DNA from: Nitrospirota bacterium
Lineage (GTDB): Bacteria; Nitrospirota; Nitrospiria; Nitrospirales; Nitrospiraceae
DNA length: 64,000 nt
Assembly (NCBI GenBank): GCA_963703955.1
Contig: CAVPGK010000026.1
Location: 1-64,000 of the forward strand
Reading direction: 5' to 3'
Shown here: one piece after another, positions 14,520-14,700 of the stretch
Numbering within the stretch: position 1 is the stretch's first letter
How the letters are laid out: each line of letters starts with the position of its first letter
Made by a program: the position numbers and the translations under genes
Notes under the pieces: generated by a model
The model's input: the letters and a program-made list of their open reading frames with translations, nothing else
What the model was told of the DNA's origin: nothing
Database searches by the model: none

Positions 14520-14700
14520 TTTTTCATGTATGAAAACATCGTCAAAGCCAACCAGGACGGGATAGATCGGAACTAACTTGGTCGCCGAGACCGTTCAATA
14601 GCATGGGTCATCCCGTTCTGCCTCCTCAAGAGCTCGAACAGTTGCCTGGGCTGGAAAGAGCCCGCATCATACGCAAGACCGAGCCGCGATGGAGGCGTCT
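14520..14700 (+). ncRNA. Predicted IS110 bridge RNA (exact ends uncertain)
   Basis: Two large internal loops closed by stems (14553-14568/14606-14620 and 14632-14636/14680-14684), each with an inner hairpin; loop segments match the target flanks and the donor junction. Confidence 0.8.

Follow-up and report, generated by a model that had tools for sequence, protein, structure and literature searches.

An IS621-like IS110 element with a bridge RNA predicted to target the attI crossover of inverted-integrase integrons

Introduction

The closest described relatives of the element reported here are IS621 and ISCro4/IS622 (PMC11208160, PMC11208158, 10.1101/2025.05.14.653916). In the parts of these sources available to us, they combine a recombinase composed of a DEDD RuvC and a serine Tnp domain with a two-loop RNA from the left end and a CT core. 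Our element shares these properties as well as the right donor half, the GCAAG right donor guide, the junction promoter and the handshake positions. On the other hand, its recombinase scores only 156 bits to IS621, donor positions 6-7 differ, and its target is an integron site instead of the REP of IS621. Furthermore, target pairing in the IS621 structure is 7+2+2, compared to about 5+2+5 in the wider group studied here.

Integron recombination sites are already known as targets of mobile elements. Examples are the attC-targeting IS1111 elements ISKpn4, ISPst6 and ISPa21 (Tetu and Holmes 2008, Post and Hall 2009, as cited in the accessible text of PMC11187229 and PMC11616780), which have, like our element, a DEDD recombinase, RNA guidance and an integron recombination site as target. 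In this group, the RNA lies downstream of the gene, subterminal inverted repeats are present and attC is hit, whereas our element shows a left-end RNA, a right end of 15 bp and, as its likely target, an attI-type crossover. Group IIC-attC introns (PMC3001079, as far as accessible) are likewise mobile and specialised on an integron site, but they are retroelements that use attC with unrelated chemistry.

With regard to the host structure, both Treponema (PMC3607928) and archaea (PMC9668308) are reported to have integrons in which attI follows a co-oriented intI. Five of our metagenomic loci (L088, L093, L097, L102, L103) resemble such inverted-integrase integrons (PMC3607928, PMC9668308, PMC4889954) in that intI is transcribed toward attI, in cassette orientation. 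Our sites differ in that attI is interrupted by an insertion sequence and that the platforms of the source genome are dispersed and mostly lack intI. No insertion sequence targeting attI was found in the literature searched, which left ISfinder, bioRxiv supplements and most subscription papers out of reach; this includes term searches in the available text of PMC9229058, PMC13604230, 10.64898/2026.08.14.744561 and 10.64898/2026.10.21.760802.

In the following, the window denotes the whole stretch of 64,000 nucleotides from a Nitrospirota bacterium that we analysed, and G000 its source genome.

Data and Methods

We gathered 78 related loci (L001-L078) from genome contigs. For the RNA alignment, 50 distinct sequences were left from 87 after removal of near-copies. 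Guides were parsed from 70 loci with 46 distinct guide pairs; 7/77 loci failed the parse and were left out (L024, L042, L052, L070-L073). Metagenomes were scanned with a pattern composed of the guides and the inner hairpin only, which gave 21 matches, i.e., 19 instances of the element and two chance hits (L096, L101). The metagenome loci, L001 and the G000 copies provide 18 distinct left flanks. L003, L034, L037 and L075 hold too little upstream DNA and were left out. Counts of attC refer to the 12 distinct sites with at least 900 nt of flank. Target cores were classed with a GTTRRRY-type consensus, which we take to be that of attI cores.

Results

Feature coordinates are listed in Table 1. 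The element ends were set by two further G000 copies with differing flanks, one on contig C10, identical inside to the window element, and one on C6, 93.6% identical and with many frameshifts. All three copies carry the core dinucleotide CT at both ends. The left end comprises 210 bp and the right end 15 bp, and the longest exact terminal repeat is 5 bp, such that no long subterminal inverted repeat is present. The recombinase scores 230.6 bits against NF033542 (cut-off 140), carries the Pfam domains PF01548 and PF02371 (DEDD RuvC plus Tnp domain with the catalytic serine) and matches the IS621 and ISCro4 chains with E-values of 1e-44 and 2e-44. An earlier note on this DNA, made from the sequence alone, had described an intact D-E-D-D and serine recombinase; in our alignment all five residues sit in the catalytic columns of IS621. 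Circularisation is predicted to form a junction promoter, which by consensus match has a 17-nt spacer and 9/12 matching positions, with the same spacing and offset in 63/79 loci. Every testable feature of the IS621-like IS110 group is present in the element and those of the IS1111-attC group are absent. The sequence thus supports an intact IS621-like IS110 element in which an intact recombinase is accompanied by a complete bridge RNA of the IS621 type. It is family membership that suggests that the system may be reprogrammable.

Table 1. Features of the element, its bridge RNA and its insertion site (window coordinates unless a contig is named).
Feature	Position	Strand	Remark
Dispersed attI/Pc-like platforms of G000	C21:137256, C16:4332, C26:2032 (window 2032-2189), C16:93699, C23:5220, C10:273249, C23:53659, C13:139359; also C21:819, C1:27514
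attC closing the cassette, 72 bp	13927..13998	-	7/7 L-box pairs; complementary to 14501-14507 at 7/7 inverse-core positions
Cassette gene, DUF6010 family	14063..14479	-	Pfam E 2.7e-6
Putative integron core (R box), 5' edge of cassette	14501..14507	-	its G is the C of the element core; exact complement of downstream attC inverse core
IS110-group (IS621-like) insertion sequence, 1,183 bp	14507..15689	+	from one CT core to the other
Left core CT and right-donor segment	14507..14513	+	kept at left end of homologues
-10 hexamer of predicted promoter formed only upon circularisation	14511..14516	+
Weak 5' hairpin near predicted RNA start	14521..14536	+	not conserved
Target-binding loop	14553..14620	+	stem 14553-14563/14610-14620, inner hairpin 14580-14592; helix pairing 96.6% and 100% (50 sequences), compensatory changes
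Left target guide	14571..14578	+	reverse complement of integron core plus CT core; guide/flank covariation
Right target guide	14595..14601	+	5 nt plus core-pairing AG; handshake bases 14602-14603
Donor-binding loop	14632..14684	+	stem 14632-14636/14680-14684, inner hairpin 14648-14663; helices 96.0% and 83.2% paired
Left donor guide	14638..14645	+	first 7 nt equal right end in 67/70 loci, 5 variants changing together
Right donor guide, core-anchored	14673..14677	+	G14673 wobble plus CAAG 14674-14677; IS621-like layout
Bridge recombinase, 317 aa	14719..15672	+	D12-E56-D98-D101 + S236
-35 hexamer of predicted junction promoter	15669..15674	+	overlaps stop codon
Left-donor segment and right core CT	15681..15689	+
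Upstream half of attI-like platform split by element	15690..15815	-	dispersed repeat member; not attC
Pc-like sigma-70 promoter facing cassette	15745..15773	-	10/12 match; now reads into element antisense

Folded as a single sequence, the window RNA is modestly beyond chance (-71.4 kcal/mol, z of -2.14, 6/200 shuffles as good). From the 50-sequence alignment, RNAalifold gives the two-loop fold unprompted. Among the four loop-closing helices, only the last is paired clearly less often (Table 1), and it drops only via its terminal pair. Changes on both sides are found for 24/33 base pairs, which none of 500 shuffles reaches, and slid controls are paired to 34-51%. The stretches that the earlier note had named, i.e., the 5' hairpin, both loops, the outer stem, the left donor guide and an ATAC motif, are all where it had placed them. 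Of the architecture it read from them, both loops with their inner hairpins are conserved among the homologues, compensatory changes included. This does not hold for the outer stem GCCTCC/GGAGGC (14620-14625/14691-14696), which is paired to 63-65% in a poorly aligned region, nor for the 5' hairpin, with an energy of -1.9 kcal/mol in the window and 0 to -5.7 across 20 clade members. Rfam has no family at the locus; its matches in the window are five tRNAs only. Taken together, we are practically certain that the bridge RNA is real and complete.

The left donor guide is identical to the right end at 15681-15688, just as the earlier note had claimed, and the homologues behave likewise. Its proposal that ATAC (14669-14672) pairs with the other element end does not hold up: ATAC occurs in the guide region of 4/70 loci, two of which are the window and its twin, compared to CAAG beside the core in 69/70 (GCAAG in 65/70). 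The distal AT of the right donor guide lies at 14666-14667 or 14669-14670. In the IS621 structure, as given in the accessible part of PMC11208158, this region shows C162-G165 pairing, a G161 wobble and two bases flipped out. The noted likeness of the donor to that of IS621 is borne out for positions 8-14 in the same source, while positions 6-7 differ; the available supplement of PMC11208160 also holds a donor row of the IS621 type. A handshake C of the target loop is found opposite donor G7 in 68/70 loci.

The target guides had gone unnamed in the earlier note; they are the new part here, and it is through them that the biological target becomes visible. Between the left target guide and its own flank, 4.2/5 positions agree, compared to 2.29 when shuffled, and for the right one 3.65/4 compared to 1.40, with none of 10,000 shuffles as good in either case (70 loci, of which kin are not independent). 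That is, the guides covary with their targets, as they do with the donor (67/70), which agrees with what the earlier note expected of a bridge RNA. Locally, the right target guide pairs with its right flank at 5/5 positions in the window, 4/5 at the C10 site and 5/5 at the C6 site. Within the wider IS621-like group (L001-L078), target pairing extends about 5 nt to either side of the core, and the left guide occurs in two registers; right positions 1-5 are matched in 83-98% and left positions 6-7 in 22% and 9%.

Two further observations concern this wider group. In 3/3 guide types with an A at target position 7, the donor loop also uses A and not U as its handshake base (window 14678; L001, L055, L067); U may be avoided because it would wobble with donor G7 before exchange. 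Furthermore, several Nitrospira homologues (L009, L013-L019, L022, L027, L031, L070) share one repeat family as insertion site.

The RNA architecture could be real and the window copy nevertheless inactive, e.g., because its right donor strand has a longer loop or its donor loop a handshake A. The frameshifts of the C6 copy would fit, as would the RNA contigs, in which the bridge region is covered by short pieces only, though contigs cannot show absence. In detail, the RNA runs X15 and X16 cover the cassette gene with contigs and other parts with short pieces, and their assembled contigs hold no circle junction, empty-site joint or RNA start (again, contigs cannot show absence). We regard inactivity as extremely doubtful: an identical copy sits at a second G000 site, run X1 holds a near-identical element in another copy of the target repeat, the catalytic residues are intact, a 5-nt loop is found in 10/70 loci, and A stands opposite target A7 in all three A7 guide types.

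At the window's own site, the element is inserted at the G|TT edge of what reads as the first gene cassette, opposite to cassette orientation. In all three G000 sites, the core is preceded by TAA and followed by ATTGA or ATTAA, and their left flank, read on the other strand, is an integron core. In run X16, an IS-free form of the window cassette breaks off at 14507. The C10 site is like that of the window, with an attC 781 bp away; at the C6 site, the adjoining gene has the wrong orientation and a non-IntI tyrosine recombinase gene is nearby. Beside the frameshifted C6 copy we also note three short direct repeats (C6:159148-159260), a site that may belong to another recombination system.

The promoter at 15745-15773 is the only one found in 14400-15900, and similar ones occur in 6/10 other clade loci. 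The surrounding repeat (15690-15815) has 13 nhmmer matches in G000 and ends at GTT, followed by variable DNA. Two sibling copies come after C-terminal remnants of IntI, and in L093 the same repeat directly follows an IntI tail. IS-free sibling cores have an exact inverse core within 1.7 kb in 4/9 cases, one with a full attC, and none in 5/9. Beside any of the three G000 copies no intI was found, and none scores above cut-off in the 82%-complete genome.

As a side observation, G000 carries dispersed attI/Pc-like platforms (Table 1). Each has a promoter and two direct repeats and ends in GTT, behind which the genes differ; most lack intI. A ParE/RHH toxin-antitoxin pair (window 15831-16404) abuts the window platform and replaces the 5' part where siblings carry the IntI tail.

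The ten complete proteins from loci with the integron-core target guide form a monophyletic clade (support 100/99) and are 79-87% identical. Seven bases of the left target guide are invariant in 20/20 clade loci, four of these being fixed by the search pattern. A GTT core is present in 17/18 distinct insertion sites of the clade, compared to 0/67 loci with other guides; the exception in L100 is GTA, and in L093 the right flank matches poorly. Likewise, 17/18 cores fit the GTTRRRY-type core expected at the 5' edge of a first cassette, and 7/12 sites, window included, have a matching attC. In numbers, an attC with 6-7/7 matching inverse-core positions lies within 1.3 kb at 7/12 distinct sites (8 with relaxed pairing) and at 0/56 controls; no attC was found at 4/12 sites (L094, L097, L001, C6).

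Pairing of the left guide fades after 3-4 bases, with position 4 matched at 13/18 and position 5 at 2/18 sites, which can be explained by a half-site that changes with each incoming cassette. Core position 6 is a purine in 16/18 and position 7 a pyrimidine in 17/18 sites, compared to only 2/18 and 3/18 for the T,T expected from the guide. Since these positions follow purine/pyrimidine rather than the guide, the site signature is that of the integron.

Among the nine metagenomic loci with more than 300 nt of right flank, five (L088, L093, L097, L102, L103) have an intI in cassette orientation that points at the site and ends 129-199 bp from the core; in L088, IntI is full length (TIGR02249, 465 bits). 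The right flank of the other four holds no IntI, and no intI was found at 7/12 sites examined when metagenomic and G000 sites are combined. A Pc-like promoter is seen by consensus match in 7/13 flanks, window included. A left-end promoter that reads outward, and by which the cassette could be rescued, was found in 1/19 cases. The guide pattern had no match in viral contigs or in 400 other genomes of the phylum, and plasmids gave partial, distant matches only, none covering 80%. As a further side observation, L087 is truncated: its left end breaks off at an internal CT behind the target loop and passes straight into an attI-type right flank, which looks as if an internal site had served in recombination.

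Based on sequence, attI is assigned by position. Our first idea was attC as target, and we dropped it: neither the upstream half nor the rebuilt site folds as attC at any of 12 sites. A Xer/dif site was also considered and dropped after attC and IntI turned up. One could still read the target as a decayed or non-canonical attC or an attG-type secondary site, i.e., as a parallel of the IS1111-attC elements instead of an attI specialist. Indeed, attI and attC resemble each other in the core with its 6-nt spacer, no intI lies near most G000 sites, and the Durrant target file contains other GTT-core, attC-like rows. In addition to the folding result, this is countered by the position of the sites, which are first in the array and, in five loci, 129-199 bp past the intI stop, with the promoter in between in 7/13; moreover, we saw no canonical attC that contains a copy of the clade. 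We thus consider an attC-derived target improbable.

A second possibility is that the element merely hits a 12-bp guide match and became associated with integrons by a founder effect, with no selection or consequence involved. This would suit the C6 copy, where the guide matches at 11/12 positions and no attC is found. Yet the best match in G000 (C6:171220, one mismatch) is empty and the occupied sites have one to two mismatches, and the integron context is kept at 18 distinct sites among proteins that are 79-87% identical, which makes a pure founder effect very unlikely. We therefore keep to the reading that the bridge RNA has the attI crossover of inverted-integrase integrons as its programmed target, a reading to which, judging from sequence, we assign a probability of about 0.85.

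Discussion

By analogy to IS621, a circular copy of the element would form the junction promoter, and the transcribed RNA would bind the recombinase to give an RNA-bound tetramer. Its donor loop would then hold the circle junction and its target loop the site, such that strands are exchanged at the CT cores. In our model, the right guide would read the constant attI spacer, and the left guide the core plus only 3-4 cassette-derived bases, which would let it tolerate whichever cassette is first. Insertion would cut attI in two: the promoter half would lose its GTT and the cassette would come to lie 1.18 kb from Pc. As a consequence, we expect no further capture at that attI and a silent first cassette as long as the element is not precisely excised. 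For the element, such a site would be a recurring, intergenic, low-cost address.

We put forward only tentatively, and with more doubt than belief, the broader view that with this clade we see the first mobile element to be programmed against attI itself. It would then be an RNA-guided reversible off-switch of integrons that freezes capture and silences the first cassette, with excision restoring both. Its degenerate left guide would be adapted to the changing half-site, and its guides would reveal attI sequences that are otherwise unpredictable in inverted-integrase integrons. With regard to reversibility, excision is less efficient than insertion according to the accessible text of PMC13626964, and copy-out that leaves the donor site intact is described in that of 10.64898/2026.08.31.748434; as far as these parts go, both results favour a lasting plug.

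In the available supplement of PMC11208160, one clade member is listed with its empty site, which is of the repeat type found at the window's own site, and the entries target_seq136-146 of file 5 have GTT-type cores with an attC-like spacer; both are unannotated there. In view of the latter entries, integron targeting by IS110-group elements may have arisen more than once.

By itself, the bridge RNA is one of thousands, and its importance comes from the target. Two gene-shuffling systems would be joined at one base, with a bridge recombinase aimed at the crossover of the integron integrase. The clade would also provide sequence-level attI sites for a class of integrons in which attI is usually unknown (PMC4889954, in its accessible part). 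A further point concerns specificity in genome editing, since the clade is a natural test of how much left-guide mismatch a bridge RNA tolerates given a right guide paired over 7 bp. For the integrons themselves, our reading predicts a natural shut-off of cassette capture and expression.
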